From positions 1 through 10,226 of IMG/VR virus record IMGVR_UViG_2690316311_000004: a DNA stretch of 10,226 nt, one strand, 5' to 3'. Every line of letters begins with the position of its first letter. Positions within the stretch are counted from its first letter, which is position 1. The position numbers and the translations under genes were made by a program. Source of the DNA: a virus (lineage: Duplodnaviria; Heunggongvirae; Uroviricota; Caudoviricetes). Positions 1 to 10,226 of the stretch are shown one piece after another. Under the pieces are notes generated by a model that was given only the letters and a program-made list of their open reading frames with translations, searched no databases and was not told the origin of the DNA.

Positions 1-541
1 ATACGTCGTGCCCGTCTTCCTGTAACTGGTTCAGCAGATTCATCAGCAGTGAGTTCTCCGTCAGGCCGAGAACACCAGACGGCGAATGAATCAGGCTGCG
101 GTAGCCGGGCTTCAGTGGGGCGCTGTATTCTTTTTTGTCTTCCAGCTTGATCGCCTCCATAATGGCGGGCATGAAGCCTGACAAGACCTTCTCCACTTTT
201 GTTTCTTGTTGTCTTAAACGTTTCTCGCATTCAATGAAGTAGCGTCGTACCTGACGACCTTTTTCGTTACGCTCGACCATTGCTAGTTCTTTGGCTGTAT
301 CGAGGGTGAGGTGGTACTCTTTGCGGTTGTGGCCGCCTCTACCAGATGTTTGCTTTCCCAAATTGGAAAGCAAAATATAGTCTTGATTTTCAATGAATTC
401 GTATTCTGAAATGCGATTTGTAATCCATGCTGCAAACACCTTTTTAACACCTAAAAAAGCGTGCAGATCGCGGGCATTGCAAAGTAGGGCTGTTTCGTTA
501 GATATAGTGCCGTTGAATACGGGGATGAGTTGACTGGTCAT
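1..541 (-). CDS. Phage antirepressor, AntA/KilAC-type (N-terminal ~180 codons; 3' end runs off the window start)
   Basis: Minus-strand ORF with ATG at 541-539 preceded by AAGGAGG (plus 547-553) 5 nt upstream; no stop before position 1. Translation [58 protein letters not shown]...[42 protein letters not shown] fits the AntA-type antirepressor N-terminal domain as I recall it. Not in the ORF track because truncated. Confidence 0.8.
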
Positions 542-570
542 GATGACCTCCTTTGAAGTTTTAGTTAGCA

Positions 571-593
571 ATCACCAGTTAGTAGCTGGTGAT
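571..593. promoter_or_regulatory. Perfect 8-bp inverted repeat ATCACCAG-ttagtag-CTGGTGAT about 30 bp upstream of the antirepressor start
   Basis: Visible; lies in the antirepressor promoter/5' leader region on the minus strand. Binding factor unknown. Confidence 0.35.
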
Positions 594-705
594 CGGGTGT
601 CAACTAGAGCCTTCAAAGACGCTCCGGGCATATTCCCCTTTTGGGTATTGTATTACGCCTCTCCACCCGACCTTTGTACGGATGTGACTATGCCAAATTG
701 CAGGC

Positions 706-735
706 ATAAAAAAGCCGCAAAGCTATCGGGTGCGG
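706..735 (-). terminator. Possible weak terminator ending the leftward operon
   Basis: Minus-strand RNA CCGCA-(11-nt loop)-UGCGG followed by CUUUUUUAUG; short stem and long loop. Confidence 0.3.
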
Positions 736-865
736 GTGACCGCTTTGAAGTTCTAGTGCGGTCAGTATGCGATAGCTCTGGCGGCATTGTCAAATCATGC
801 GCCACTGAGTCCAGCAATCTCTGCAATACCAATAGCGAGATAATCGCGATTCGTCAGGCGTGATT

Positions 866-1114
866 TTATTGCATATGTCTTAGCTCCACTGAAGTTGTGA
901 TTTTATATGGGTTGCCTTTTACCTCAATAACACGATGAGGATCATTTTTTAGCTCTTCCGTAATCTTCCGTAATCTTCTAACAGCTGAACTTCGGTGTTT
1001 ATAACGGTAAGTTACAGTTTCTTTTCTCTGCAATACCTCATCATTGCGGTACTTAGTCAAAACCATGACGACTTCAAACCTGACGCCGTTGTGTGCAACC
1101 ATAATCTGCTTCAT
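866..1114 (-). CDS. Small basic hypothetical protein (82 aa), translationally coupled to the upstream methyltransferase
   Basis: ATG at 1114-1112 overlaps the methyltransferase TGA (ATGA overlap); GGGAG about 9 nt upstream. Product MKQIMVAHNGVRFEVVMVLTKYRNDEVLQRKETVTYRYKHRSSAVRRLRKITEELKNDPHRVIEVKGNPYKITTSVELRHMQ is K/R-rich with no family I recognise. Contains a 10-bp tandem repeat that sets the C-terminal frame. The ORF track extends it to 1234, which I consider unlikely. Confidence 0.45.
   Translation of the reverse strand: MKQIMVAHNGVRFEVVMVLTKYRNDEVLQRKETVTYRYKHRSSAVRRLRKITEELKNDPHRVIEVKGNPYKITTSVELRHMQ
955..978. repeat. Tandem repeat of the 10-mer CTTCCGTAAT (2.4 copies) inside the 866..1114 ORF
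   Basis: Directly visible: cttccgtaat at 955-964 and 965-974, then cttc at 975-978. The period is not a multiple of 3, so copy number determines the reading frame of the last ~30 codons. Confidence 0.9.
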
Positions 1115-1761
1115 GCTGCACGCTCCCGCCCCTGGTTGTCTGTTGGTGACAGCGGAGCATTGCTGAATGCATTTGTTAATCCGCCAATATCCAACGCGTA
1201 TCCAGGGTGTAGTTGCACTGCCGGGTCTTCGCACTGATTACCCCAAACATCGAAACCATGAGACGACTGGCGGGCGAACAGTTCAATGCGAGAAACATCG
1301 CCTAACAATTGCACAAGTTTTTCACGAACGATATCTGGTTTTCTTGAATGCTCAAGCCGCGGTGCGGTAAATGACTGAACGATCCCTGCATTAATGCGCG
1401 TAGGTAGTTTTCCCTTTACCGCAAACAGGCAATCTTCACTATTGGCGCGAGTCATGTGCCCCATACCCATAACCAGTTTATCTGGTTGTCGACTACCACA
1501 TTTTATCCACGTGAAGCCCTTCATGGTCATCAGACGGAATCCCCAGGCTTCAACAACTTTTAGTGCTTCGAGTGGTTGTGTTGGCACCCACCACATGGCC
1601 AACAGACAGTTTTCATCGGCCAAATCCCACACAGGAAGGCGGCAGATATCCAGCACACTCATAACCGGATATTTAAAACCGGCACCGCGATTACCATCTG
1701 CGGCTTTGTCCCGGTATACCCAGGGTGGATCTGCATAGATTAGTGTGTATTTCTTAGTCAT
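1111..1761 (-). CDS. MT-A70-family (beta-class) N6-adenine DNA methyltransferase
   Basis: 216-aa ORF with ATG at 1761-1759. N-terminal LIYADPPWVY (DPPW catalytic motif) and C-terminal RIELFARQSSHGFDVWGNQ are characteristic of the MT-A70 family as recalled. Stop overlaps the start of the downstream small ORF. Confidence 0.85.
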   Translation of the reverse strand: MTKKYTLIYADPPWVYRDKAADGNRGAGFKYPVMSVLDICRLPVWDLADENCLLAMWWVPTQPLEALKVVEAWGFRLMTMKGFTWIKCGSRQPDKLVMGMGHMTRANSEDCLFAVKGKLPTRINAGIVQSFTAPRLEHSRKPDIVREKLVQLLGDVSRIELFARQSSHGFDVWGNQCEDPAVQLHPGYALDIGGLTNAFSNAPLSPTDNQGRERAA

Positions 1762-2053
1762 AAACCACCCCGCAACATCCTATGCCGCTATAGTCGCCAC
1801 GGCGAAGGCCGTTACCTTTTGTGATACATTGGTCCCTGCGAACCGCGATCCTTGCACGCTCAACATCACCAGAAGCAACATCCATACACTGAAGCCAAAG
1901 GTGGGCGGCAATGCGGAACTGCCCTTTTTTCTCTCTTTCAATCGCGCGTTTTTCGATCTCTATCGCCGCAGGAGTAACGGCAACAACCTTTGAAGGGCTG
2001 CGCATTGAAACCTTGTTCATGTGATATTTTTCAAGTCGGCTTAACTTTCTCAC
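1754..2053 (-). CDS. Hypothetical protein; start uncertain (GTG 2053, or ATG at 2020 or 2005)
   Basis: ORF overlaps the methyltransferase start by 8 nt, suggesting co-translation. The GTG at 2053 has no good SD; the ATG at 2005 has AAGG 5 nt upstream. No recognisable domain. Confidence 0.4.
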   Translation of the reverse strand: MRKLSRLEKYHMNKVSMRSPSKVVAVTPAAIEIEKRAIEREKKGQFRIAAHLWLQCMDVASGDVERARIAVRRDQCITKGNGLRRGDYSGIGCCGVVYD

Positions 2054-2162
2054 TTAATCCAACCATCTCTGAAAATTAATGCCAGCAGATAAAGCCATGC
2101 AGAAACAGAGGCCAGGAATAAGTACCATCCTGACCATTTGCTCCAGTGCCTTAGCAGCACAC

Positions 2163-2411
2163 TCATGCCGCGTTGCTCACGGGACGATATACACGTTGCT
2201 GAACAGGAGGTTTTTTACCCTGGAACTCTGCCGGGCTTGCTGCCTGACGTTCATCAAGCCAACGCTCAACTTCATCACGGTTCCATGCGCAGCGTTTATC
2301 GGTGATATACCAGCGTTTAGGAAATTCCCCTGCGCGCTCCATACGGTCGATAGTGCTCCATGACAGTGGCACCACCGCCAGGAGTTCCTTCTTACCTAAT
2401 GCACCTTTCAT
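2163..2411 (-). CDS. AlpA-family phage transcriptional regulator / excisionase-like HTH protein
   Basis: 82-aa ORF with ATG at 2411-2409 and AGAGAGG SD 6 nt upstream. LLAVVPLSWSTIDRMERAGEFPKRWYITDKRCAWNRDEVERWLDERQA matches the AlpA/Xis-type winged-helix pattern (S-STIYR-IK-G-FP-...W...EV-.W) from memory. Confidence 0.75.
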   Translation of the reverse strand: MKGALGKKELLAVVPLSWSTIDRMERAGEFPKRWYITDKRCAWNRDEVERWLDERQAASPAEFQGKKPPVQQRVYRPVSNAA

Positions 2412-2433
2412 AAATACCTCTCTTGGTTGCAGT

Positions 2434-2452
2434 GCGGCGCGCGTGGCGCCGC
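2434..2452. other. Perfect 7-bp GC-only inverted repeat (GCGGCGC-gcgtg-GCGCCGC) between the annealing-protein and AlpA-like genes
   Basis: Visible in the sequence; no T-run follows on either strand, so it is not a canonical intrinsic terminator. Confidence 0.4.
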
Positions 2453-2460
2453 GGTGGTGG

Positions 2461-3342
2461 TTACATAGATGTTTCGTTTAATTCTTCCCGACGAACGCTG
2501 TAAACGTCGGTGGCTTTTGCCAGCAGTTCGTCATCATCTGAAAGTTTTTGTGCAATGTATTTGTAAGCCTTATCCAGTTCGGAGACAGTGCTGTAATTCA
2601 TCGCTGCGCTGGTAAAGGCCATCAGCATTTCTTCTGGATCACGGCTATCCGCTTTACGCGTTTGCTCATCAGGCTTTTTCGCTGGTTTAGCGTTGATCAG
2701 ACTGTTCATTCCCGCAGCAGTGGTCGTTTGCGGAGTAATGTCTCGCTCAACGCGCGGTGCCGTTTCCTGTAATTCGTCAGGGGTGTAAACACCGAGAAGT
2801 ACATCAGGAGCGTGCAGGCGAGCCCATCGTTTCGTGCAAAGATAGGCAAGCTGCTGGCGCGGATCCTGTTCCCACAATGGAGAGTTACGCACTCCGGCTT
2901 GCGCCATACTGATGGTAAGCTCACGGGGTTCTGCTTCTCCTTTAAGAACTGCTGACACAGTTACCGTCAGATTCGGTGATTTATCTGTTTTGCCGTTAAC
3001 ATTCGACCAGTCACCGCTCCAGCGATAATTCAGGCGTGTCGCTAGCAGGCTGGAAGAGGATACGACCGCGTTTACCAACTGTGCTTCGTAGCCTAACGTT
3101 CCGTTTACCACATGCGTTTTCTGCGCCACGGCGAAAGGATTCATTCCCCACTGTGCCGCCTGCATGGTCACCGCCAGACAATCGGCAGGTTTGCCTTCAA
3201 GATGTTTCGGTACAGTCGCTTTGCTTTGTGACATCAACTCCGCGAAACGCACCAGTTGATTCATGCCCTCCGGGCTGAAGATTGCCGCAGCAGTACCTAC
3301 AGTTGCGCCTGGTTGTGATGTGATTGCGATATCATTGCTCAT
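2461..3342 (-). CDS. Single-strand annealing recombinase, Bet (Red-beta)/RecT superfamily
   Basis: 293-aa ORF whose ATG overlaps the exonuclease stop (ATGA). Segments MQAAQWGMNPFAVAQKTHVVNGTLGYEAQL, QQLAYLCTKRWARLHAPDVLLGVY and ERDITP parallel lambda Bet (ANQYGLNPW..., KAMIQCARLAFGFAGIY, ERDITP) as I recall it. Sits directly after an exonuclease gene. Confidence 0.85.
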   Translation of the reverse strand: MSNDIAITSQPGATVGTAAAIFSPEGMNQLVRFAELMSQSKATVPKHLEGKPADCLAVTMQAAQWGMNPFAVAQKTHVVNGTLGYEAQLVNAVVSSSSLLATRLNYRWSGDWSNVNGKTDKSPNLTVTVSAVLKGEAEPRELTISMAQAGVRNSPLWEQDPRQQLAYLCTKRWARLHAPDVLLGVYTPDELQETAPRVERDITPQTTTAAGMNSLINAKPAKKPDEQTRKADSRDPEEMLMAFTSAAMNYSTVSELDKAYKYIAQKLSDDDELLAKATDVYSVRREELNETSM

Positions 3343-4160
3343 ACGTACATATCCTGTTTACGTGCCCAGTCAGGGCGTTTAATAATTTCCACTCCGCCCC
3401 ACTCATCGTTGATGCGGCATTCGTGATAGGTATTCAGATCCCGGCGGAACAGAGCGTGCCCGGCATCGACATCCGGCGCATCCAGCTCGAACACGCGTAC
3501 CGGATACCGACCACAATCAATGCTTTCGCTCACGGCAAGAAAGAAAAAACCATGTGGCTGACCAGTAACCCTCATTGCGCCTTCGCGGTACATTGCGTCC
3601 TGCACGTGGTAGCGGAACTCCTCGATGTGGCGTGCAAAACGGTCCATATCTGCAACCTTTTTCACGTCGACGATCACGTTGTGCTCGTTCAGCCATTTGT
3701 CTGGACGAATTCGGCACAACTCACCCGTATCTTCATCGTTCCAGTACATTGATGCTTCGCAGTAACCATGTGCTTCCAACATCCAGCGTGCCGCCGGGTG
3801 AGCCATTGCGCTATCACGCATCAGCTCCAGTTTTCGCCACTGCTCTGCATCAAGTACCGAAATCCCCATATCCGCTACATCACGAATAAATGCCTCTTCG
3901 TCAGCTTTACCTTGTTTTGTCCGACGATCGAATTTCGGTGAAACGATGAAGCGTTTGTCAAACTCTCCAGGTTCCAGAAGCAGACAGTGCAGAGCAGTAC
4001 CCATGTCCAGTGCAGACTTCTTCTCTTCGTCTTCCGGAGCAGCCTTCACCCATTTCAGAAGGGCAGGGTTCTTAGCCACCATATCTAGCTGCGACTTACT
4101 CACGCCGTCACCGGCGTGGTAGTCCTCGTTGCTGATATCGAAATAAATTCCCGGATTCAT
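3339..4160 (-). CDS. Exonuclease VIII-like (RecE C-terminal type) PD-(D/E)XK nuclease, recombination partner of the annealing protein
   Basis: 273-aa ORF. N-terminal GIYFDISNEDYH, a PDKW...VIVDVKKV (D...D-x-K) block and HVQDAMYREG (Q-x3-Y) fit the PD-(D/E)XK fold of prophage exodeoxyribonuclease VIII-like proteins (recalled). Coupled to ORFs on both sides by ATGA overlaps. Confidence 0.8.
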   Translation of the reverse strand: MNPGIYFDISNEDYHAGDGVSKSQLDMVAKNPALLKWVKAAPEDEEKKSALDMGTALHCLLLEPGEFDKRFIVSPKFDRRTKQGKADEEAFIRDVADMGISVLDAEQWRKLELMRDSAMAHPAARWMLEAHGYCEASMYWNDEDTGELCRIRPDKWLNEHNVIVDVKKVADMDRFARHIEEFRYHVQDAMYREGAMRVTGQPHGFFFLAVSESIDCGRYPVRVFELDAPDVDAGHALFRRDLNTYHECRINDEWGGVEIIKRPDWARKQDMYV

Positions 4161-4456
4161 GCCGCGTCCCTCTGCCCATCAAGCTGATCCGCCAGCTCCC
4201 AGCGGGCGATAATTGCCATTGCCTCTCGCCGATAGGCATCCATCAGTTCTTCGAACTCAGGGCTGTCTTTAGCAGCCTCCAGCACTTCCTGACGAACGCC
4301 TTTGCCTGTTACAACGTCAAAAGTTGAGGCCAGTTGATGAAGCCGGATACTCTCAATCAGTTCGACTTGTCGGTCATATAGCTGTTCTGACAGGCGGTAG
4401 TCCTTGTCGAATGCCAGCATGATTTTTTGAAGATTTTTCTGCTGATTAACGTTCAT
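4157..4456 (-). CDS. Hypothetical protein occupying the gam-like position upstream of the exonuclease
   Basis: ATG at 4456-4454 (MNVNQQKNLQKIM...) with GGGAGGG SD 8 nt upstream. The ORF-track start at 4471 lies inside that SD, so I prefer 4456. No confident family assignment; not obviously lambda Gam. Confidence 0.6.
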   Translation of the reverse strand: MNVNQQKNLQKIMLAFDKDYRLSEQLYDRQVELIESIRLHQLASTFDVVTGKGVRQEVLEAAKDSPEFEELMDAYRREAMAIIARWELADQLDGQRDAA

Positions 4457-4458
4457 TA

Positions 4459-4611
4459 TCAGCCCTCCCATATCTCGTTATCGTTGGCCACATCGCGAGC
4501 TTCTTTGCTGACGAAAGCCCACTTAATACCTTCCTGTAAGGTGCGGAACTTCCAGCTCATGAATCCGCATGCAGTAACGCAGTACCAACCGTTGATGATT
4601 TTCCACTGCAT
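4459..4611 (-). CDS. Small ORF (50 aa) at the kil-like first position of the leftward operon
   Basis: ATG at 4611-4609 with GAGG SD 9 nt upstream. Product MQWKIINGWYCVTACGFMSWKFRTLQEGIKWAFVSKEARDVANDNEIWEG. Its stop lies in the SD of the next gene. Absent from the ORF track, presumably under a length cut-off. Confidence 0.35.
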   Translation of the reverse strand: MQWKIINGWYCVTACGFMSWKFRTLQEGIKWAFVSKEARDVANDNEIWEG

Positions 4612-4667
4612 AACTTGTTACCTCGGCCTGTTATCGTTGAGGTAATAATTATGCGTATCTGGTTTGA

Positions 4668-4673
4668 TGTCAA
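4668..4673 (-). promoter_or_regulatory. Candidate -35 hexamer (TTGACA on the minus strand) of a pL-like leftward early promoter
   Basis: Perfect TTGACA on the minus strand about 55 nt upstream of the 4611 start. The -10 is ambiguous (CATAAT/TAATTA at about 4645-4652). An operator palindrome lies just upstream at 4693-4707. Confidence 0.35.
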
Positions 4674-4692
4674 TAGATATGAGTTAAAAAAA

Positions 4693-4707
4693 TTACCCAT
4701 TAGGTAA
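4693..4707. promoter_or_regulatory. Operator-like palindrome TTACCC-att-AGGTAA (copy 1 of 6)
   Basis: Visible palindrome, extendable to ATTACCCATTAGGTAAT (4692-4708). Sits between the repressor-gene terminator and the leftward promoter. Confidence 0.6.
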
Positions 4708-4717
4708 TCGAATAGGC

Positions 4718-4744
4718 AATAAAAAAGCCGCCTTCTGGCGGCTT
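4718..4744 (-). terminator. Intrinsic terminator of the repressor gene (minus strand)
   Basis: Minus-strand RNA reads AAGCCGCC-AGAA-GGCGGC followed by TTTTTTATT: a 6-7 bp GC stem with 4-nt loop and U-run, 20 nt downstream of the repressor stop. Confidence 0.75.
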
Positions 4745-4764
4745 ACTTACTGAAAAATATGATT

Positions 4765-5349
4765 TTATTGTTTGTTTTTTTCGTTCTGGTTGATGACAAA
4801 TTCAATGTAACTTTCGATCTTTGCTTTCTCGGTTTCGGGTAACAATGCGTAGCGCGAGCGATCATAGTTGATGGTCGCAGGGTCGTGCGGGTGAATCAGT
4901 AATTCATAGCCGTGACGCCCGAATGCGGATGCAACATTCTCCAGGGTGGAAATGGAAACGCTGACCTCATTGTTTAACAGGCGGCTGATTGTCACTTGGG
5001 CGACGCCGGATGCGCGGTGTAGTTTTCCCTGCGTTGAAAGGTCGCGGCTTTCGCTCATCCAGCGTTCCAGGTTGTGAGCCGCCAGCTGACCTATATCGCT
5101 CGGGCCGACAGGCTGAAAACCCTCCTGAGAAAGCGAGCGATCAATATCAAGCCAGTTACGGGGTTTATTGGCGGCAGCTTCAATTTTTCGTGCAACCTGG
5201 TCGCCGATAACCTTCTTGCCAAGAGCCCAGCGGTTTACCAGATTTGCCTGAGTTCCAAGTTTTTCTGCCATCCGCGTCTGAACACCATTGAATTCACGGT
5301 CGATCAAGTCGTTGAGATTTTGCCTGCGGACGTCCTGGATACTTTTCAT
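4765..5349 (-). CDS. Prophage repressor candidate with two tandem HTH (XRE/CI-type) domains and no recognisable S24 peptidase domain
   Basis: 194-aa ORF divergent from the Cro-like gene. First HTH around QTRMAEKLGTQANLVNRWALGKKVIGDQVARKI; second around LHRASGVAQVTISRLLNNEVSVSISTLENVASAFG. No Ala-Gly/Ser-Lys autocleavage module seen. Poor SD, consistent with a near-leaderless maintenance transcript. Confidence 0.8.
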   Translation of the reverse strand: MKSIQDVRRQNLNDLIDREFNGVQTRMAEKLGTQANLVNRWALGKKVIGDQVARKIEAAANKPRNWLDIDRSLSQEGFQPVGPSDIGQLAAHNLERWMSESRDLSTQGKLHRASGVAQVTISRLLNNEVSVSISTLENVASAFGRHGYELLIHPHDPATINYDRSRYALLPETEKAKIESYIEFVINQNEKNKQ

Positions 5350-5372
5350 TTTCTGGAAAATCGCCTCATATA

Positions 5373-5391
5373 TGAATCAGTAGATGATTCA
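5373..5391. promoter_or_regulatory. Unique perfect palindrome TGAATCA-gtaga-TGATTCA about 25 bp upstream of the repressor start
   Basis: 7-bp arms with 5-bp spacer, visible in the sequence. A different motif from the recurrent TTACC/GGTAA palindrome and not repeated elsewhere in the window. Confidence 0.4.
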
Positions 5392-5404
5392 ATTTAAAGC
5401 AATA

Positions 5405-5419
5405 TTACCCAACAGGTAA
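5405..5419. promoter_or_regulatory. Operator-like palindrome TTACCC-aac-AGGTAA (copy 2 of 6), OR-like region
   Basis: Visible palindrome in the divergent repressor/cro intergenic region. Confidence 0.6.
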
Positions 5420-5449
5420 ATGCACCTCATAGGTAACTATCCTTGATTT

Positions 5450-5478
5450 TTGTTACCTTATGGGTGAATATTTATTAT
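5450..5478 (+). promoter_or_regulatory. Candidate pR-like promoter for the Cro-like gene (-35 TTGTTA 5450-5455, 17-bp spacer, -10 TATTAT 5473-5478)
   Basis: Hexamers read by eye; an alternative -35 is TTGATT at 5443-5448. Operator copy 3 lies between -35 and -10. Confidence 0.4.
5453..5467. promoter_or_regulatory. Operator-like palindrome TTACCT-tat-GGGTGA (copy 3 of 6, one mismatch)
   Basis: Visible; overlaps the proposed pR spacer. Confidence 0.5.
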
Positions 5479-5503
5479 CTGAAATAAATATCAGGCAATA
5501 GCT

Positions 5504-5734
5504 ATGAGCGATAACGGACATTTCGATTTCAAAAAGCACTGGCTTGCACTTACTCCGGATGAGCGTGAAGCCTTCGCACAGGAAGCCGGAACAACGAGTC
5601 ACTATATCCAGACTCACTTAACAGGTAAGCGCAAAATGCCAGGTAAGGTATTGATGAATGGGCTTTTTAAAGCCTGTAAAACAAGACAATGGCTGCGCTC
5701 AAAAGCAGAACTGGCATACTTCTTCTACTCATGA
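5504..5734 (+). CDS. Cro-like / YdaS-like small HTH regulator
   Basis: 76-aa ORF divergent from the repressor. HTH-like segment EAFAQEAGTTSHYIQTHLTGKRKMPGKVL. Followed by an intrinsic terminator. Weak SD (AGG 8 nt upstream). Confidence 0.65.
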   Translation: MSDNGHFDFKKHWLALTPDEREAFAQEAGTTSHYIQTHLTGKRKMPGKVLMNGLFKACKTRQWLRSKAELAYFFYS

Positions 5735-5756
5735 TATCCAGCTACAACCCTCTGTA

Positions 5757-5782
5757 GACCGCCACCCGGCGGTCTTTTCATA
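5757..5782 (+). terminator. tR1-like intrinsic terminator after the Cro-like gene
   Basis: GACCGCC-accc-GGCGGTC followed by TTTTCATATCTATT: 7-bp GC-rich stem, 4-nt loop, T-rich tail. Confidence 0.65.
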
Positions 5783-5789
5783 TCTATTC

Positions 5790-5804
5790 GTACCTCAAAG
5801 GTAA
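5790..5804. promoter_or_regulatory. Operator-like palindrome GTACCT-caa-AGGTAA (copy 4 of 6, one mismatch)
   Basis: Visible; immediately downstream of the tR1-like terminator. Confidence 0.45.
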
Positions 5805-5884
5805 TAAAAAACCAAATCTGGTTGATCTTTTTTTTGTGTCAGCACAAAATGACCGTAATCCCAATACTAATAACAGGGCTTACC

Positions 5885-6085
5885 ATGGAAATCATTACAC
5901 GTATTGATGCCGCAAAGCGCGGACTTAAACGCTACTACACCGGAAAACCATGTAAGCATGGACATGACAGTGAACGCTGGGTTTACAACGGACACTGTGT
6001 TGAGTGCACCATGGAATCAAACCGTCGCATCAGGGCAGAGATTAAGCAGATCATGATTAATTCCTCCCCACAACACTCAAGCTGA
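5885..6085 (+). CDS. Small Cys/His-cluster (zinc-ribbon-like) hypothetical protein in the cII-like position
   Basis: Product MEIITRIDAAKRGLKRYYTGKPCKHGHDSERWVYNGHCVECTMESNRRIRAEIKQIMINSSPQHSS has C-x-H-G-H ... H-C-x-E-C spacing suggestive of metal binding. Start ambiguous: ATG 5885 (weak SD), ATG 5849, or the ORF-track TTG at 5822. Confidence 0.5.
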   Translation: MEIITRIDAAKRGLKRYYTGKPCKHGHDSERWVYNGHCVECTMESNRRIRAEIKQIMINSSPQHSS

Positions 6086-6100
6086 TAGCGGAGATTAATC

Positions 6101-6934
6101 ATGAGCAGACATGCAACAGATTGGGCCTGGGAGACAGATCCAGGTAGCTCATCATTAAAGCTCATACTGCTCTCGATGGCTGACAGAGCCGATGAATATA
6201 ACCTCTGCTACCCCAGCATAGAACGCCTCGTTAAAGACACTTGCCTGAATAAAAAAACCGTGCAGGCCGGGCTTATATCGCTCATGAAAATGGGGCTTAT
6301 TTCAGATACCGGAGAGAGAAAGGGAGCGACGAAAAGAGTGCGGGTTTTCTCTCTTAATATAACCAAAAACGGGAACATTAAAGGCAACCGGGAAGGGGGT
6401 AATGAACCCGAAAACGGTAATGTTACCGAAAACGGTAATGTTACCGAAAACGGGAATATACCCAAAAACGGGATGTTGAATGATCCCAAAAACGGGATGT
6501 TGAATGATCCCAAAAACGGGATCCAGAACCAGTCATATAACCAGTCATTTAACCAAGAGAGGGAGAGCAGGACAAAAAGCGGGGATTCTGTGCCTCATGA
6601 CCCCGGCGCAAACAACGCCGTGATGAATAACTTTGTTCCTCCTGGTGGGCCAGGGCAATTAGGCAAATTTGTCATGCATGAACAATGGCAACCATCAGAT
6701 GACTTTCTTCGGAAAAGCTCATTGCAGGGGATCTACCTGGACAGTCTGCCAACGGCACAGGAACTTGCAGAGTTCAGAATTTACTGGATGGCTGAGGGTA
6801 AGGCATACCATCAGGCGCAGTGGGAGCAGAAGCTGGCAAGGCGGCTGCAGATTAGCAGACAGAAGCAATCAACATTACCTGATAACAACGTTCCGCACTG
6901 GAACAGCCCTGAAGCATGGGAGGATTTCTTGTGA
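6101..6934 (+). CDS. Replication initiator (O-like): N-terminal winged-helix replication HTH domain, iteron-encoded linker, C-terminal DnaT-like domain
   Basis: 277-aa ORF with GGAG SD 8 nt upstream. N-terminus WAWETD...SSLKLILLSMADRADEYNLCYPSIERLVKDTCLNKKTVQAGLISLMKMGLIS is replication-initiator HTH-like. C-terminus GKFVMHEQWQPSDDFLRKSSL...ELAEFRIYWMAEGKAYHQAQWEQKLARRLQISR closely parallels E. coli DnaT (GKFAMYPDWQPDADFIRL...[29 protein letters not shown], recalled). Stop overlaps the P start (GTGA). Confidence 0.85.
   Translation: MSRHATDWAWETDPGSSSLKLILLSMADRADEYNLCYPSIERLVKDTCLNKKTVQAGLISLMKMGLISDTGERKGATKRVRVFSLNITKNGNIKGNREGGNEPENGNVTENGNVTENGNIPKNGMLNDPKNGMLNDPKNGIQNQSYNQSFNQERESRTKSGDSVPHDPGANNAVMNNFVPPGGPGQLGKFVMHEQWQPSDDFLRKSSLQGIYLDSLPTAQELAEFRIYWMAEGKAYHQAQWEQKLARRLQISRQKQSTLPDNNVPHWNSPEAWEDFL
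6361..6552. repeat. Origin-like iteron array inside the O-like gene
   Basis: Seven copies of a CC(C/G)AAAACGG(G) core at 6363-6373, 6407-6417, 6426-6435, 6444-6454, 6461-6472, 6485-6496 and 6509-6520, with 18-bp then 24-bp periodicity. Several are palindromic (ATCCCaaaaacGGGAT, GTTACCgaaaacGGTAA), resembling lambda ori iterons (TCCCTCAAAACGAGGGA, recalled). Followed by a tandem 12-mer CCAGTCAT(A/T)TAA x2 at 6529-6552. Confidence 0.7.
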
Positions 6935-7716
6935 ACAACGTTTTTACCGCAATACAAAACCGTGACGGAGAAGCTCTTTCTCGCATGTCAGGTTATGAGC
7001 ATCAGTACGTCAACAATGACAACGTAGTGAACATGTCAGCAGAGAGGCTTGTTGATGCCCTTTTCAAACAGTTGAAACAACTGTTTCCGGCGGCAGTGGT
7101 AACCAACCTGAAGACGCCAGAGCAGGAAGTTGCTGCAAAACAGCAGTGGATTGCTGCGTTTGCCGAAGGGGGGATCCGAACCCGTGAACAGGTTTCTGCT
7201 GGTATGCGCCACGCCCGCGCCAGTGATTCTCCGTTCTGGCCGTCGCCAGGGCAATTCATCAAGTGGTGCAAAGACAGCAAGATGGTTCTTGGCGTCACCA
7301 TTGACGATGTGATGACGGAGTTTCACCGGTACAGCAAGGAAAAAAGTTTATATCCTGGTGGTCCCGAAAGATTCCCGTGGCGGCATCCGGTTATGTACTG
7401 GGTCGTATGTGATACCCGCCGTGCAATGTATCAGCGCCAGCTTAGCGAGATAGAGGTTGAGAAACACGCGCGCAGGCTGCTCGATGATTGGGCGAAAAAG
7501 GTGGCTTCCGGACAGCAGATACCCGATCCGGTGATCAGCATACAGGCAAAGCCAGAACCCATGAGTACGCCTCCGGACACAGGGAGAGACGTTTACCATC
7601 CACCAGGGCGAAGTTTCGGGTGCATGCCTAACGCCGCCACCCTTGGGGGAATAACACCGGCGCAGTGGCTGATGGAGGAATACAGGCGAGGAAAGGCGGA
7701 AGGATTTATCAAGTAA
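6931..7716 (+). CDS. Replication protein P homologue (DnaB helicase loader), lambda P family
   Basis: From GTG 6931 (GGAGGA SD 6 nt upstream) the product VNNVFTAIQNRDGEA... aligns with lambda P MKNIAAQMVNFDREQ...; QQWIAAFAEGGIRTREQVSAGMRHARASDSPFWPSPGQFIKWCKD matches lambda P RQWVLAFRENGITTMEQVNAGMRVARRQNRPFLPSPGQFVAWCRE (recalled). The ORF-track ATG at 6916 is the alternative start. Confidence 0.9.
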   Translation: MNNVFTAIQNRDGEALSRMSGYEHQYVNNDNVVNMSAERLVDALFKQLKQLFPAAVVTNLKTPEQEVAAKQQWIAAFAEGGIRTREQVSAGMRHARASDSPFWPSPGQFIKWCKDSKMVLGVTIDDVMTEFHRYSKEKSLYPGGPERFPWRHPVMYWVVCDTRRAMYQRQLSEIEVEKHARRLLDDWAKKVASGQQIPDPVISIQAKPEPMSTPPDTGRDVYHPPGRSFGCMPNAATLGGITPAQWLMEEYRRGKAEGFIK

Positions 7717-7721
7717 TACCA

Positions 7722-7741
7722 GCGCGATAGCGCATTTTTTT
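7722..7741 (+). terminator. Weak tR2-like terminator after P
   Basis: GCGC-gata-GCGC followed by ATTTTTTT, 6 nt after the P stop. The stem is only 4 bp, so confidence is low. Confidence 0.35.
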
Positions 7742-7753
7742 ACGTTTCGATAA

Positions 7754-7768
7754 TTACCTGTTAGGTAA
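7754..7768. promoter_or_regulatory. Operator-like palindrome TTACCT-gtt-AGGTAA (copy 5 of 6; perfect, extends to ATTACCTGTTAGGTAAT)
   Basis: Visible; upstream of the candidate promoter -35 at 7788. Confidence 0.6.
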
Positions 7769-7787
7769 TAAAATATTCTAAAATCTA

Positions 7788-7816
7788 TTGATTTCGTGTC
7801 TTATGTGGTTTTTAAT
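7788..7816 (+). promoter_or_regulatory. Candidate sigma70 promoter for the DUF1064/Ea22 block (-35 TTGATT 7788-7793, 17-bp spacer, -10 TTTAAT 7811-7816)
   Basis: Hexamers read by eye; flanked by operator copies 5 (upstream) and 6 (overlapping the -10 and start region). Confidence 0.45.
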
Positions 7817-7830
7817 TACCTCAGGGGTAA
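7816..7830. promoter_or_regulatory. Operator-like palindrome TTACCT-cag-GGGTAA (copy 6 of 6)
   Basis: Visible; ends 3 nt before the ATG at 7834 and overlaps the proposed -10. Confidence 0.55.
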
Positions 7831-7833
7831 ATC

Positions 7834-8178
7834 ATGAGAAAACAGATACAGGCTCTTGGTCGACTCAAAACAGGCCAGATGAACAAAACAGAATCTGCGT
7901 ATTGCCAGCACCTTGAGCTGCGTAAACGTGCAGGAGAAATCGTCTGGTATCGATTTGAGGGTATCAAGCTTCGGTTAGCTGACAACACGTTCTATACGCC
8001 CGATTTTGCTGTGATGCTCGCCACCGGCGAGATGGAACTGCACGAAGTGAAAGGTTTCTGGACCGACGACGCCAGGGTGAAAACCAAAGTCGCCGCAGAT
8101 CAGTATCCGTTCCGAATCATCGGGGTAACGGTTAAACCAAAGAAAGCAGGTGGTGGCTGGAATATCGAAGAGTTCTGA
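7834..8178 (+). CDS. DUF1064-like phage protein (putative nuclease-fold protein)
   Basis: 114-aa ORF with AGGGG SD 6 nt upstream. YTPDF...ELHEVKGFWT resembles the D...E-x-K-type core I associate with the phage DUF1064 family; assignment from memory. Confidence 0.65.
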   Translation: MRKQIQALGRLKTGQMNKTESAYCQHLELRKRAGEIVWYRFEGIKLRLADNTFYTPDFAVMLATGEMELHEVKGFWTDDARVKTKVAADQYPFRIIGVTVKPKKAGGGWNIEEF

Positions 8179-8239
8179 ATCGACGATCTTTTTAGTTATC
8201 AATGTAATCAATAAGTTATGTGGATAAGCGAGGGTAAAG

Positions 8240-8872
8240 ATGGAAAGTAATATCAAAGGGTTAGTTGCCGCCGGGCATGAGATGGCTTCGGAACTGAAAG
8301 CAGAATGTGGTGCCGTTGATATGCGCAGTGTGGCAAAGCTGATCAGCGATTTGGCAACGCAACTGGAAGTGCAACTGGTGCGTGCTAATGCGCTGGCCGA
8401 AGACCAGCAGAAAGCGATTGAGTCAATTAAGCAGGCTGATTCGGCTGTTAAGTTGGCACACGAGAAGTTTTCGGCGCTGGCGGCGGAGAATGCGGGGCTG
8501 AAACATGCAATGGCTGTAACTCTTGAGCATGTGTCGGTCACGGATGCAGGTCAGGCCGGAGTTGCTGCAATGATTATCAACGATGCCCTGCACCACAGCG
8601 AAACTCCAGCCACCGATGCTTTTCTGGCTGAAATTCGTGCGGCGGCTCGCAACGAGGGGATTAACTATACCGCAAGCCGTCTTGCTGCTGCTTTCAACCA
8701 CGGATTTATCAATAAGTCTTTACGTGAAGTTTTCGACGTTACGCGCATGATTCTGTCAGCGAAAGAAGAGTTGGCTAATGAACCGCACCCGATTGATGGC
8801 CTGTCCGGTGAATATGCGGAGAAATCCCTTGAAGAATGGGCGGAACAGATTCGCAAAGGAGCTGACAAGTGA
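8240..8872 (+). CDS. Ea22-like (ead/Ea22-like family, tentative) phage protein, paralogue A
   Basis: 210-aa ORF with a coiled-coil-like middle (ALAAENAGLK) and a C-terminal domain (ETPATDAFLAEIRAAARNEGINYTASRLAAAFNHGFI...RMILSAKEE) shared with the ORF at 9288..10073. The family name is a tentative recollection. Confidence 0.6.
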   Translation: MESNIKGLVAAGHEMASELKAECGAVDMRSVAKLISDLATQLEVQLVRANALAEDQQKAIESIKQADSAVKLAHEKFSALAAENAGLKHAMAVTLEHVSVTDAGQAGVAAMIINDALHHSETPATDAFLAEIRAAARNEGINYTASRLAAAFNHGFINKSLREVFDVTRMILSAKEELANEPHPIDGLSGEYAEKSLEEWAEQIRKGADK

Positions 8873-9279
8873 AGAGGATGATTTTTGTGGCGGCATTGCT
8901 GACCATTACCCAACAGGCGCAGGCTTCAGCAGTTATTGTGGCATCTACCGCCGCGACCACGGCTGCTGTAGCTGCTGCGAACTCTGCGAATATCGCAAAC
9001 CAACAGTCACAGCGTGCTGCCAATGCATCAGCCAGTGTTCACCCAATCGCCATTAAGGCCAGCAAGAAAAATATAGGTTTCATAACATGCGGCAAACGTT
9101 CTGACGAGGCTGTAGGTTCACTTGGATGTACGGTATATGGGGATAGTGAGAGTAGAGAAATTCCATGGAAAACGTGGCCCGGATATGTTCTCGGATCGAA
9201 GCTCACTGCCAGCTATGAAGTAAACGCCGTATCGTTTGATCACTATAACGGCGTGGCAACGGTCTATTTTGCATATTGA
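8869..9279 (+). CDS. Small secreted/periplasmic protein with Sec-type signal peptide; function unknown
   Basis: GTG at 8869 overlaps the upstream stop (GTGA), with AAGGAG 7 nt upstream. N-terminus MKRMIFVAALLTITQQAQA has n-region KR, an 11-residue hydrophobic core and an AQA-S cleavage-like site, followed by an Ala/Thr/Ser-rich linker and a ~70-aa C-terminal domain with two Cys. Confidence 0.6.
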   Translation: MKRMIFVAALLTITQQAQASAVIVASTAATTAAVAAANSANIANQQSQRAANASASVHPIAIKASKKNIGFITCGKRSDEAVGSLGCTVYGDSESREIPWKTWPGYVLGSKLTASYEVNAVSFDHYNGVATVYFAY

Positions 9280-9287
9280 GGCTCCGC

Positions 9288-10073
9288 ATGAAATTCTCCA
9301 AATTTTCTGAGTTGGTGAATCGTATTTTGTCCAACAACCACAGCCATCGTCGCGATATGGATGTAACGATCGTTGTTCATTCGCCTGGCAGCATTGGTTC
9401 AACACCCTCAGTTGAGGTTCAGTCAATTCACGCTGGTTTTGATTGGGATTCCGGGAAAGTGCTGATTTTCCCAGCACAGCCACTGACTACGCTAACACCA
9501 GAACAGATTACTGATATTACTGATAGTGTGCGCAAAGGTCAGTCCTGGCACGCATATCAGGAATATAAGAAGCATAAAGAGCAGTTGGAAAAATTATCGA
9601 TTGAACTTGATACCGCAAAACAGCGCATTGCAGAGCTGGAGGGTAATCGCGCGGCGCTGGCTGCGGAGAATGCGAGACTGAAGGCGATATGTGAGGATCG
9701 CCGCACGTTCATTATGAATGGCGTGCAGCTTGGTTTTATCAAAGTGCCAACAGTGGAAATAGATCCAGCTCTTGAAACAATTCGTATCGCCCTATCACCA
9801 CAAAAAACCACTCCTGCGACCGACACTTTCCTGGATGAAGTGAAGACTGAAGCACGCAAGGAGGGCGCTTACTTTGTGGCGAACAGAATGCTGGCTGCTT
9901 GGGAAGCTGGTTTTATTGATGATACTGCGAAGAACGCCGCGGATATTGCCCGGATGATTCTTACCTCTACTGAGTTTATGGCTAATGCGCGGGAAGGCGA
10001 TTTTGACCGCTCATTCTCTGATGGCGTTCTCGAAGATATCGCTGACCAGCTTCGAAAAGGAGGCAAACAGTGA
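9288..10073 (+). CDS. Ea22-like (tentative) phage protein, paralogue B
   Basis: ATG at 9288 with GAGG 6 nt upstream (the ORF track uses TTG at 9276). Coiled-coil IAELEGNRAALAAENARLK and C-terminal TTPATDTFLDEVKTEARKEGAYFVANRMLAAWEAGFI...RMILTSTEF parallel paralogue A. Confidence 0.6.
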   Translation: MKFSKFSELVNRILSNNHSHRRDMDVTIVVHSPGSIGSTPSVEVQSIHAGFDWDSGKVLIFPAQPLTTLTPEQITDITDSVRKGQSWHAYQEYKKHKEQLEKLSIELDTAKQRIAELEGNRAALAAENARLKAICEDRRTFIMNGVQLGFIKVPTVEIDPALETIRIALSPQKTTPATDTFLDEVKTEARKEGAYFVANRMLAAWEAGFIDDTAKNAADIARMILTSTEFMANAREGDFDRSFSDGVLEDIADQLRKGGKQ

Positions 10074-10226
10074 GCAAGATTGACTATCAGGCACTGCGCG
10101 AGGCGGCAGAAGCAATAAAAGTCGTGGCAACGCCGCAAAAATTGCTTGCGTTTCGTATGAAAGTCACACCGCAGGTTGTGCTGGTGCTGCTGGATGAACT
10201 AGAAGCTAAAAACAAACGCATTACAG
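10070..10226 (+). CDS. Partial ORF (5' end only), hypothetical phage protein
   Basis: GTG at 10070 overlaps the upstream stop (GTGA), with AGGAGG 6 nt upstream. Reads MSKIDYQALREAAEAIKVVATPQKLLAFRMKVTPQVVLVLLDELEAKNKRIT... with no stop before the window end. Confidence 0.45.
   Translation, partial: MSKIDYQALREAAEAIKVVATPQKLLAFRMKVTPQVVLVLLDELEAKNKRIT

Follow-up and report, generated by a model that had tools for sequence, protein, structure and literature searches.

A PHROG 8805 family gene in the early region of a tailed-phage genome encodes a small, predicted exported protein and behaves as mobile cargo

The gene at 8869..9279 and its neighbours

The window, by which we mean the whole stretch of DNA that was analysed, comprises 10,226 nucleotides of a Caudoviricetes genome (IMG/VR record IMGVR_UViG_2690316311_000004, positions 1 to 10,226). 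On its + strand, a CDS at 8869..9279 encodes a 136-residue precursor of a predicted exported protein of the PHROG 8805 family, with a GTG start and a TGA stop at 9277-9279. Reading the sequence revealed a Shine-Dalgarno motif, AAGGAG (8856..8861, + strand), 7 nt upstream of the start codon, and PGAP calls the identical CDS (WP_032346211.1, hypothetical protein). The aaggag-N7-GTGAAGA context is also present in pAPEC201603 and phage Av-05, and the GTGAAGA part of it is common to the prophage, the phage-plasmid, Av-05, and T1-like phages; GTG is also the commonest start among IMG/VR family loci with an assigned start (28 GTG versus 10 ATG). An alternative start at ATG 8878 was rejected, as the sole Shine-Dalgarno-like sequence abuts that ATG and initiation there would delete the basic n-region found in all relatives, K2 being invariant among the close ones. 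The GTG (8869-8871) overlaps the TGA (8870-8872) of the upstream ORF as GTGA, from which an earlier note on this DNA had proposed translational coupling; this overlap was confirmed and recurs in T1-like phages, but it is not universal: Av-05 instead shows a gap of 65 nt, and an ATG or another form of overlap is used elsewhere in the family.

The upstream ORF (8240..8872, + strand; 210 residues; phrog_614/368/492), whose stop overlaps the start described above, encodes a coiled coil and a C-terminal module, C1. Downstream lies an ORF of 261 residues (9288..10073, + strand), which PHROG matches and paralogy divide into an N-domain (phrog_6026), a coiled coil, and a C-terminal module paralogous to C1; the module shared by the two products covers ~130 residues at 35% identity (E 1e-18). 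The C-terminal half of the upstream product is 59% identical over 107 residues to that of a PF13935 (Ead_Ea22) protein in L006, and in other records PGAP gives the equivalent neighbours the name "ead/Ea22-like." Neither flanking ORF matched the PF13935 or NCBIfam Ea22 models, or the sequence of the lambda Ea22 structure in the PDB. The earlier description of the gene as lying between two Ea22-like paralogues therefore holds for the shared C-terminal module, which a Pfam Ead_Ea22 protein has as well, but not for membership of the Ea22 models themselves. The phrog_6026 N-domain is also encoded downstream of the PHROG 8805 gene in pAPEC201603 and Av-05. We rejected an obligate partnership between the two, as the N-domain gene follows DUF4752 where the PHROG 8805 gene is absent and is itself absent beside the family gene in T1-like phages, Mu-like phages, and P0076-type plasmids.

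Family membership, distribution, and mobility

The product of ORF 8869..9279 matches phrog_8805 with an E value of 2.7e-84, residues 1-136 aligning on profile positions 1-136; PHROG 8805 is thus the family of this gene, and it is one without a characterised member. (Near-)identical proteins in NCBI and UniRef are named "hypothetical protein" or "Prophage exported protein." The family is small, and its hosts are almost only Enterobacterales, through phages and prophages. Five unrelated kinds of phage, some temperate and others strictly lytic, carry it, namely lambdoid prophages, P1-like phage-plasmids, Mu-like phages, T1-like phages, and the lytic myovirus Av-05. Pfam, NCBIfam, PADLOC, and PDB sequence searches returned no match for the product, PADLOC-DB HMMs at E<=1 matched neither this ORF nor its two neighbours nor three distant relatives, a BFVD structure search recovered the family's own member as its sole match, and a literature search by accession numbers and PHROG identifier found nothing. 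Long repetitive eukaryotic proteins retrieved by the exhaustive search (P0063, P0065, P0069, and P0072) were discarded as spurious repeat matches. Among species-representative genomes, a single family locus, 99% identical, was seen in an "Actinomycetes" metagenome-assembled genome; mis-binning is the probable explanation, not a wider host range.

Because the family has no named domain, is rare, being found in just 64 of 5426 E. coli genomes and 5 of 50,697 phage records, and includes a few truncated or frameshifted copies (P0051 and P0055), we considered whether the ORF might be a chance reading frame or a decaying, functionless remnant. The comparative data already contradict such a reading, which we regard as extremely improbable: even at ~35% identity the whole length is conserved and Cys, Gly, and aromatic residues stay invariant, the Shine-Dalgarno motif and start are conserved, AlphaFold gives a confident fold, the family spans its five unrelated phage types, and pairwise dN/dS stays below 1 (0.16-0.73, from few sites). 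Relatives at only 34 to 40% identity have the n-region and h-region, the two Cys, and a cleavage-type site with A at -1 and a small residue at -3, so these features of the ORF go beyond chance. ORF 8869..9279 is almost certainly a real gene.

Several observations indicate that this gene moves on its own. A 99% match to a P1-like phage-plasmid spans 8474 to 9682, consistent with a 1.2-kb cassette exchanged with the prophage, and a 31-nt direct repeat lies at either end: the left copy (8472..8502, + strand), which codes for ..AALAAENAGLK.., is 90% identical to the right copy (9652..9682, + strand), where the phage-plasmid match ends. In comparison with the prophage of E. coli VR50, a gene-sized divergence island was seen at 8851..9335; identity in 100-nt bins was 85 to 94% within the island and 97 to 100% elsewhere over 5854-10090, with the exception of one repeat-region bin. 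In a VR50-type comparison, dS was 0.24 in the ORF and 0.014 in the upstream gene. Allelic replacement through recombination explains this island. DUF4752 is found as alternative cargo in the same slot. The repeats, the island, and the alternative cargo support the earlier suggestion of an accessory gene, and on this comparative evidence the gene behaves as single-gene mobile cargo. Since the pairwise dN/dS values (0.24-0.73) rest on few sites and are never clearly above 1 in the C-terminal domain, they do not demonstrate diversifying selection.

Predicted export and the C-terminal domain

Residues 1-19 (8869..8925, + strand) form a predicted signal peptide, identified from Hessa hydrophobicity and conservation, in which MKR, MIFVAALLTIT, and QQAQA supply the basic n-region, hydrophobic h-region, and polar c-region of a Sec precursor and AQA-S the predicted signal peptidase I site. 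The h-region of a Sec/signal peptidase I precursor was taken as 7-15 hydrophobic residues, and the -3/-1 site was called by a rule-based check for small uncharged residues; the core here has 11 residues and a Hessa sum of -1.77. The remaining 16 of the 17 genes in the window have N-terminal Hessa sums of at least +1.7, none with a TM-like 19-mer, leaving this product as the only one with a hydrophobic N-terminus. All 37 aligned relatives have a K or R, a hydrophobic core of 11-16 residues, and an A at -1, even though the residues themselves diverge; residue -3 is A, V, T, S, or G in every one, and the cleavage-type site falls at positions 18-23. Residues 1-30 of the product contain no Cys, and the sequence shows neither a lipobox Cys nor a twin-arginine (RR) motif. 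A few relatives have a Cys close to the signal peptide, but it is unconserved among the 37 aligned, which gives no family lipobox. A signal peptide had been recorded independently by those who deposited phage KLB16, and the T1-like homologues consist of a signal peptide, a short linker, and the domain, with nothing more. Taken together, it is very likely that the product is exported by Sec and places its domain in the periplasm, with predicted cleavage by signal peptidase I after AQA19. The layout that the earlier note had read from the sequence, a Sec signal peptide with an AQA-S site, was confirmed as a prediction and is kept by distant relatives in the five unrelated phage types; its remark that an exported-type protein sits among cytoplasmic early genes was borne out as well.

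The predicted cleavage site is followed by a low-complexity spacer, residues 20-68 (8926..9072, + strand), rich in Ala, Thr, Asn, and Gln and agreeing with the Ala/Thr/Ser-rich linker described previously. AlphaFold draws the spacer as a helix with low confidence; in P1-like alleles its length varies through AAAT repeats, and in T1-like and Mu-like relatives it is missing or swapped for Pro-containing or charged sequence. A helix unbroken across residues 3-55, an Ala-rich 19-mer of borderline Kyte-Doolittle hydrophobicity (1.65), and basic residues C-terminal to the Ala-rich stretch raise the alternative that the protein stays in the inner membrane, either through an uncleaved signal anchor, from which the spacer would extend the domain into the periplasm, or through a helical hairpin made up of the signal peptide and the Ala-rich stretch, with the C-terminal domain then on the cytoplasmic side; a spacer whose length is made polymorphic by repeats would also be sensible for a tethered domain. 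However, the best 19-mer of the spacer has a Hessa sum of +2.81, and in a SAR/TM segment test the Ala-rich stretch at residues 20-38 was too weakly hydrophobic for membrane integration (Hessa +2.81); at about +2.8 it is therefore not TM-like, and the first hydrophobic core is just 11 residues long. The A-x-A-type site is found in 37/37 members, several of which have K or R at -2, within the would-be anchor, and the Ala-rich stretch is lacking altogether in T1-like and Mu-like members. In addition, the helix is predicted at low pLDDT (55-78), and an invariant Cys pair suits an oxidising compartment. We regard retention in the inner membrane as improbable and favour a cleaved, soluble periplasmic protein.

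Residues 69-136 (9073..9276, + strand) are modelled by AlphaFold as a compact, aromatic-rich alpha/beta domain with the order b-b-b-b-a-b-b, ending in ...ATVYFAY. The structure prediction called for in the earlier note thus gave a confident compact fold (pLDDT 89.4, pTM 0.76), and its ~70-residue domain with two Cys proved to be ~68 residues long, both Cys being invariant in the 37 relatives. The full set of invariant domain residues in the 37 aligned sequences is G70, T73, C74, G75, C87, P104, Y116, D124, T131, Y133, F134, and Y136. Cys74 (9088-9090) and Cys87 (9127-9129) bound a 12-residue loop (9088..9129, + strand), which a disulfide between them would probably close. Alignment entropy is concentrated in two loops, residues 76-82 and 88-97, so that the Cys-loop is among the variable parts. 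The C-terminal ..YFAY was considered as an outer membrane protein beta-signal or a DegS-activating C-terminus; this idea was rejected, as several members carry 1-5 residues beyond the motif and the terminal strand is part of the modelled folded sheet.

Probable timing of expression and possible role

ORF 8869..9279 belongs to the early-right operon, in which O/P-like replication genes and a DUF1064 gene precede it, and no promoter-like or terminator-like site was predicted on the + strand between 7775 and 9279. The family gene is also carried by strictly lytic phages (Av-05 and T1-like), and in Mu-like phages it lies in the early region, between a gp11-like gene and gemA. Early lytic expression of ORF 8869..9279 is likely. 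Its position in the early-right operon means that the product is probably made in lytic growth and not in the lysogen, which narrows the types of exclusion to be considered; if expression is confined to lytic growth, the gene could not protect a lysogen.

The best analogue for a possible mode of action is T4 Spackle (gp61.3), a small, early, Sec-exported phage protein that acts in periplasmic superinfection exclusion by binding and inhibiting the gp5 tail lysozyme of the incoming phage (PMC7677548, PMC7650644). A Sec-type signal peptide is common to both, but the product of ORF 8869..9279 showed no sequence or fold similarity to gp61.3. Cor of T1/phi80 is a small exported phage protein that acts at the envelope to protect an infected cell or a lysogen. 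T5 Llp is likewise a small exported phage protein guarding the cell at the envelope (PMC9586334). Llp and Cor are lipobox Cys lipoproteins that target one receptor, FhuA, whereas PHROG 8805 proteins have no conserved lipobox and the receptors of their carriers differ. The phages that carry the family in fact use very different receptors, which argues against a receptor-specific blocker. Pfam, NCBIfam, and PADLOC searches found no homology of the product to a characterised superinfection exclusion (Sie) protein, lysozyme inhibitor, or defence or anti-defence protein. Superinfection exclusion, surface modification, and host interaction, which the earlier note had put forward, are kept here as candidate roles. 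The divergence island, the variation in two loops, the cassette exchange at 99% identity, and the alternative DUF4752 cargo nevertheless lend the locus an arms-race flavour that we counted for the role.

Our best explanation of the locus as a whole, to which we give somewhat less than an even chance, is that the gene encodes a moron-like, exported, periplasmic binder of the lytic cycle, preferably with an exclusion-type role. The gene would be an accessory, moron-like one, transcribed with the early-right operon and translated from a GTG with a good Shine-Dalgarno motif that overlaps the upstream stop. Sec would export the 136-residue precursor, and signal peptidase I would remove its first 19 residues, up to and including AQA19, delivering to the periplasm a protein of ~117 residues, the Ala-rich spacer followed by the 68-residue alpha/beta domain. 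The mature protein would then act as a periplasmic binder on an envelope component during lytic growth; in the version that we prefer, it would work as a superinfection-exclusion factor such as T4 Spackle does, shielding the infected cell against other phages or against damage to the envelope. The conserved half (residues 98-136 and strand 1) may serve as a scaffold or common contact, with specificity perhaps set by the variable Cys-loop and hairpin (76-97). Exclusion or protection by binding of an envelope or incoming-phage component, argued here from analogy, is a tentative proposal that may well not hold.

A small, predicted periplasmic protein made before lysis might instead regulate lysis or cell-wall turnover, as an antiholin-like partner in the way of T4 RI or as an inhibitor of a phage or host peptidoglycan hydrolase. 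Ivy (PF08816) and MliC/PliC are small periplasmic proteins, as predicted for PHROG 8805. Ivy presents a disulfide-bounded loop, and the Cys-loop presumed here would be similar in kind; one homologue, in a Cronobacter element, has an Ivy gene 1.7 kb away. That proximity was seen just once, however, and at none of the loci examined is the family gene in a lysis cassette. Nor did Pfam searches link the family to Ivy, to MliC/PliC, or to any lysis protein (28 members searched at E<=10 for Ivy and MliC/PliC), and there was no structural match to Ivy or MliC/PliC; we consider a lysis regulator very unlikely.

The DUF1471/YhcN proteins (BhsA, YahO, SrfN, and YdgH) are periplasmic and Enterobacterales-specific. 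Following a structural lead, we considered whether PHROG 8805 might be a highly diverged, phage-borne relative or mimic of these proteins, or of an RcsF-like fold, that binds envelope polysaccharide or tunes host envelope-stress or capsule signalling and does not block phages. The DUF1471 fold has been reported to be similar to that of RcsF (PMC4092069). DUF1471 proteins are chromosomal and stress- or biofilm-regulated, with a longer helix and no conserved Cys pair (PMC4092069), whereas PHROG 8805 proteins are phage-borne and have an invariant pair. The DUF1471 sheet order is 2-4-3-1 with a long helix on top. A relationship to DUF1471 was not supported, given noise-range scores, the lack of a Pfam match (none to PF07338 at E<=1 for this product or at E<=10 for 28 members), and an hhalign probability of 0.65%. 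PHROG 8805 resembles the RcsF signalling domain in having a flexible linker followed by a small alpha/beta domain with a disulfide, presumed in our case; the relationship was rejected at an hhalign probability of 1%. We judge a role of this kind unlikely.

A broader proposal, which we consider rather improbable, is that the family represents a new class of periplasmic effector whose small, disulfide-looped domain is common to lambdoid, P1-like, Mu-like, T1-like, and rV5-like phages of Enterobacterales and binds a conserved envelope component of these hosts. It might do so as an RcsF/DUF1471-type decoy that rewires signalling for envelope stress or capsule, or it might generally inhibit a step of phage DNA entry in the periplasm, with the Cys-loop and hairpin setting allele-specific targets. 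Were the targets allele-specific in this way, the gene-sized allelic replacement would be explained.

The product is already in the databases as a hypothetical protein, and nothing found here contradicts current expectations. A compact, confidently modelled, Enterobacterales-centred protein that occurs in temperate and lytic phages of five types and is swapped as a single gene points to a portable lytic-cycle function. Phages use small exported proteins of early infection, among other means, to remodel or protect the envelope, and the targets are known for very few of these proteins; the periplasmic partner of the PHROG 8805 protein could thus expose a new mechanism of exclusion or of envelope manipulation.

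A conserved gene with a Sec-type leader

The gene at 8869-9279 (plus strand) is real and conserved. It has a GTG start, 136 codons and a TGA stop; the GTG (8869-8871) overlaps the TGA of the upstream ORF (8870-8872) by two bases, and an AAGGAG lies on the same strand at 8856-8861, 7 nt 5' of the start. The identical CDS is present in the PGAP annotation of a 100%-identical E. coli chromosome (WP_032346211.1, "hypothetical protein"). The GTG start is supported because the context aaggag-N7-GTGAAGA is also found in a phage-plasmid and in Av-05, because the family gene of T1-like phages has a GTGA overlap with a different, unrelated upstream gene (a methylase), and because GTG predominates among the IMG/VR family loci with an assigned start. 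The protein begins MKR-MIFVAALLTIT-QQAQA, with the cleavage-like site falling before the following S, then runs through an Ala/Thr/Asn/Gln-rich stretch to a final segment of ~68 residues with Cys at 74 and 87. An earlier note had described this gene at exactly these coordinates, with its GTG start, its GTGA overlap with the upstream gene, a Sec signal peptide, an AQA-S site, a low-complexity linker and a two-Cys C-terminal part; gene, layout and position are all as it stated.

Hydrophobicity was scored on the Hessa biological scale. The 11-residue core of the leader scores -1.77, whereas in the remaining 16 window genes even the best N-terminal 11-mer scores at least +1.7 and none of these genes encodes a TM-like 19-mer; on sequence grounds, the protein is apparently the only envelope-directed product in the window. 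The case for export rests on signal-peptide rules and comparison, using 37 aligned members, the most divergent of them at ~34% identity. All 37 have K/R among the first residues, a hydrophobic core of 11-16 residues, and A at -1 with A/V/T/S/G at -3, at positions 18-23; the signal-peptide residues themselves vary widely while the layout stays. Neither a conserved lipobox nor a twin-arginine motif was found in the alignment, both Cys are invariant in it, which matches the expectation for a periplasmic disulfide, and the homologue of phage KLB16 was deposited as having a signal peptide. The alignment shows a conserved leader of predicted Sec/SPase I type, and this strong comparative evidence supports export; the earlier note's interpretation is partly supported, on this point.

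The protein could instead be tethered to the membrane, with an uncleaved leader or the Ala-rich stretch after the cleavage site as anchor. That stretch is weakly hydrophobic (best 19-mer: Kyte-Doolittle 1.65, Hessa +2.8) and is absent from the T1-like and Mu-like members, so a second membrane span is disfavoured; K or R at -2 in several members fits a c-region, not a longer membrane anchor, and we regard a tethered topology as quite improbable. The T1-like proteins consist of a signal peptide, a Pro/charged linker of ~25 residues and the domain, with nothing more. In P0076-type alleles of P1-like plasmids (IMG/VR loci L062, L063, L064 and L066; protein P0092), the length of the Ala-rich stretch varies by AAAT/AAAT-like repeats, giving proteins of 133-150 aa, the behaviour expected of a spacer.

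Fold and distribution of the family

Structure prediction of the C-terminal domain, which the earlier note had proposed, gave a confident AlphaFold2 model from a 28-sequence alignment (pLDDT 89.4, pTM 0.76). The model shows a predicted folded domain carrying the invariant Cys pair, with four strands followed by a helix and a C-terminal hairpin; modelling of the full-length protein drew residues 3-55 as one low-confidence helix. DUF1471 proteins are Enterobacterales-specific, periplasmic and similar in size, which makes them an attractive lead, and their fold is reported to resemble RcsF (PMC4092069). On a DUF1471-like fold, the role would be in envelope signalling or polysaccharide binding. 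However, the relationship fails every sequence test (no match of PF07338 to 28 members at E<=10; hhalign probability 0.65%), and such a role is unlikely. RcsF against the family gave an hhalign probability of 1%, and the only match in a BFVD search was the family's own member, so the domain is assigned to none of these folds.

The full length of the protein matches PHROG 8805 (E 2.7e-84; function category "unknown"), and searches of Pfam, NCBIfam, PADLOC and PDB sequences returned no match; the names given in databases are "hypothetical protein" and "Prophage exported protein". An exhaustive phmmer search with the C-terminal 80 residues against 1.84 billion cluster representatives (E<=0.001) gave 16 proteins; ~10 of these are genuine relatives, all small (71-134 aa), and the long repetitive proteins among the matches were rejected as spurious. 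The family is present in 5 of 50,697 phage records, at 60 loci in 2.9 million IMG/VR contigs and at 67 places (20 on plasmids) in 64 of 5426 complete E. coli genomes. The sole match among 185,579 species-representative genomes was one 3.2-kb contig of an "Actinomycetes" MAG (JAFAFN010000164.1), 99% identical to the E. coli allele and most likely a mis-binned enterobacterial phage contig.

The family is thus rare, yet spread over very different Enterobacterales phages: lambdoid prophages (the window and E. coli VR50), ~90-kb P1-like phage-plasmids, the lytic myovirus Av-05 (Vequintavirinae), ~45-kb phages of Klebsiella and E. coli, Mu-like phages (between a gp11-like gene and gemA) and a Cronobacter element of ~85 kb. 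In the ~45-kb phages, which we take to be T1-like, the gene lies directly 3' of a C-5 methylase gene, a few small genes before the terminase gene. Very small hydrophobic proteins (57-71 aa) are encoded after it (L004 2748-2963 and 3079-3252; L005 2722-2928), one with a TM domain and signal peptide in the depositors' annotation, forming a small cluster of envelope-directed products immediately before the terminase gene. In the Cronobacter element (L010 7140-7592), the family member lies 1.7 kb upstream of an Ivy (inhibitor of vertebrate lysozyme) domain gene, so that this accessory region encodes two small exported proteins.

Operon position and exchange of the gene

A prophage integrated beside guaA in E. 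coli 2015C-4944 matches the window at 100% identity over at least 7834-10073, and its PGAP gene names were transferred. The minus-strand block encodes an MT-A70 methyltransferase, a PerC-family regulator, an HTH protein, RecT, a PD-(D/E)XK nuclease and a cI-like repressor; the plus-strand block encodes a cro-like protein, DnaT-like and P-like replication proteins, DUF1064, a 210-aa ORF, the exported protein and a 261-aa ORF. Beyond the window end, the 2015C-4944 prophage continues with an Ea22-like gene, DUF551, ASCH and terminase. The gene therefore lies in the early-right operon, after replication and before packaging genes. From this position, and because prediction gave no promoter-like or terminator-like site for the plus strand from 7775 to 9279, we infer that it is co-transcribed with early lytic genes and silent in the lysogen. 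In the early-left region, the PerC-family gene (1754-2053, minus strand) adjoins the methyltransferase gene, and an Rfam match to sRNA-Xcc1 (RF02221; 583-672, minus strand; 62.9 bits, gathering score 53) lies at the left window end, near the antirepressor and methyltransferase region.

The description of the flanking ORFs as Ea22-like paralogues was partly right. They share a C-terminal module of ~130 aa (35% identity, E 1e-18) that is also the C-terminal half of a Pfam Ead_Ea22-matching protein in a P1-like plasmid (59% identity), but neither matched PF13935, the NCBIfam Ea22 models or the lambda Ea22 C-terminal domain in PDB; they are mosaic relatives with modules in common. A 31-nt direct repeat (8472-8502 and 9652-9682; copies 90% identical) sits in the coiled-coil-coding parts of both (..AALAAENAGLK..). 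The 1.2-kb block between the copies (8474-9682) comprises the C-half of the upstream ORF, the gene and the N-half of its downstream neighbour. It shares 99% identity with the P1-like phage-plasmid pAPEC201603 and looks like a cassette swapped by recombination inside the conserved coil segment. The repeat itself resembles a recombination linker through which Ea22-like genes would trade modules and cargo; crossing-over between its two copies would remove the gene and fuse its neighbours.

Compared with the VR50 prophage in 100-nt bins over 5854-10090, the window shows 97-100% identity with two exceptions. One is an island at 8851-9335 (85-94% identity); together with a dS of 0.24 in the gene against 0.014 in the gene immediately upstream, it indicates gene-sized allelic replacement. 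The other is bin 6354-6453 (82%), a repeat region inside the DnaT-like replication gene (6101-6934); it coincides with a stretch encoding repetitive NGNVTENGN / PKNGMLND, possibly the site of origin iterons that vary in copy number. In the slot between the same flanking modules, a DUF4752 gene replaces this one in other E. coli prophages and in P1-like plasmids (L014 2467-2757, L015 1898-2188), so the slot is polymorphic for cargo, and parts of the flanking genes are found in 1511 of the 5426 E. coli genomes versus 64 for the gene. Variation within the protein peaks at residues 56-68, in the Cys-bounded loop (76-82) and in the next hairpin (88-97), with residues 98-136 nearly invariant. Pairwise dN/dS overall is 0.16-0.73, which shows purifying selection with fairly relaxed constraint; positive selection is not claimed. 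The gene travels as single-gene cargo through the early regions of temperate and strictly lytic phages.

Possible roles

Since lytic phages retain the gene and it lies in early operons, its benefit should fall in the lytic cycle. The precursor would be produced early in lytic growth, exported and cleaved at AQA-S, and the mature protein of ~117 aa, presumably soluble and periplasmic with one disulfide, would bind a component of the envelope or of an incoming phage. Functionally, the nearest precedent is T4 Spackle, which is made early, reaches the periplasm by Sec export and blocks the tail lysozyme of superinfecting phage (PMC7677548, PMC7650644), and by this analogy a role in exclusion or protection is a tentative possibility; regulation of lysis or of the cell wall by the protein is very doubtful. 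Phages carrying the family use different receptors. This spread and the lack of a lipobox make a Cor- or Llp-type blocker of one specific receptor less likely.

Small exported phage accessory proteins are a well-known class; this member is already listed as PHROG 8805, and a specialist is unlikely to find its features very surprising. Its cross-phage distribution, its cassette structure and the replacement of alleles on the scale of one gene make a reasonable case for a simple expression and phage-panel experiment.
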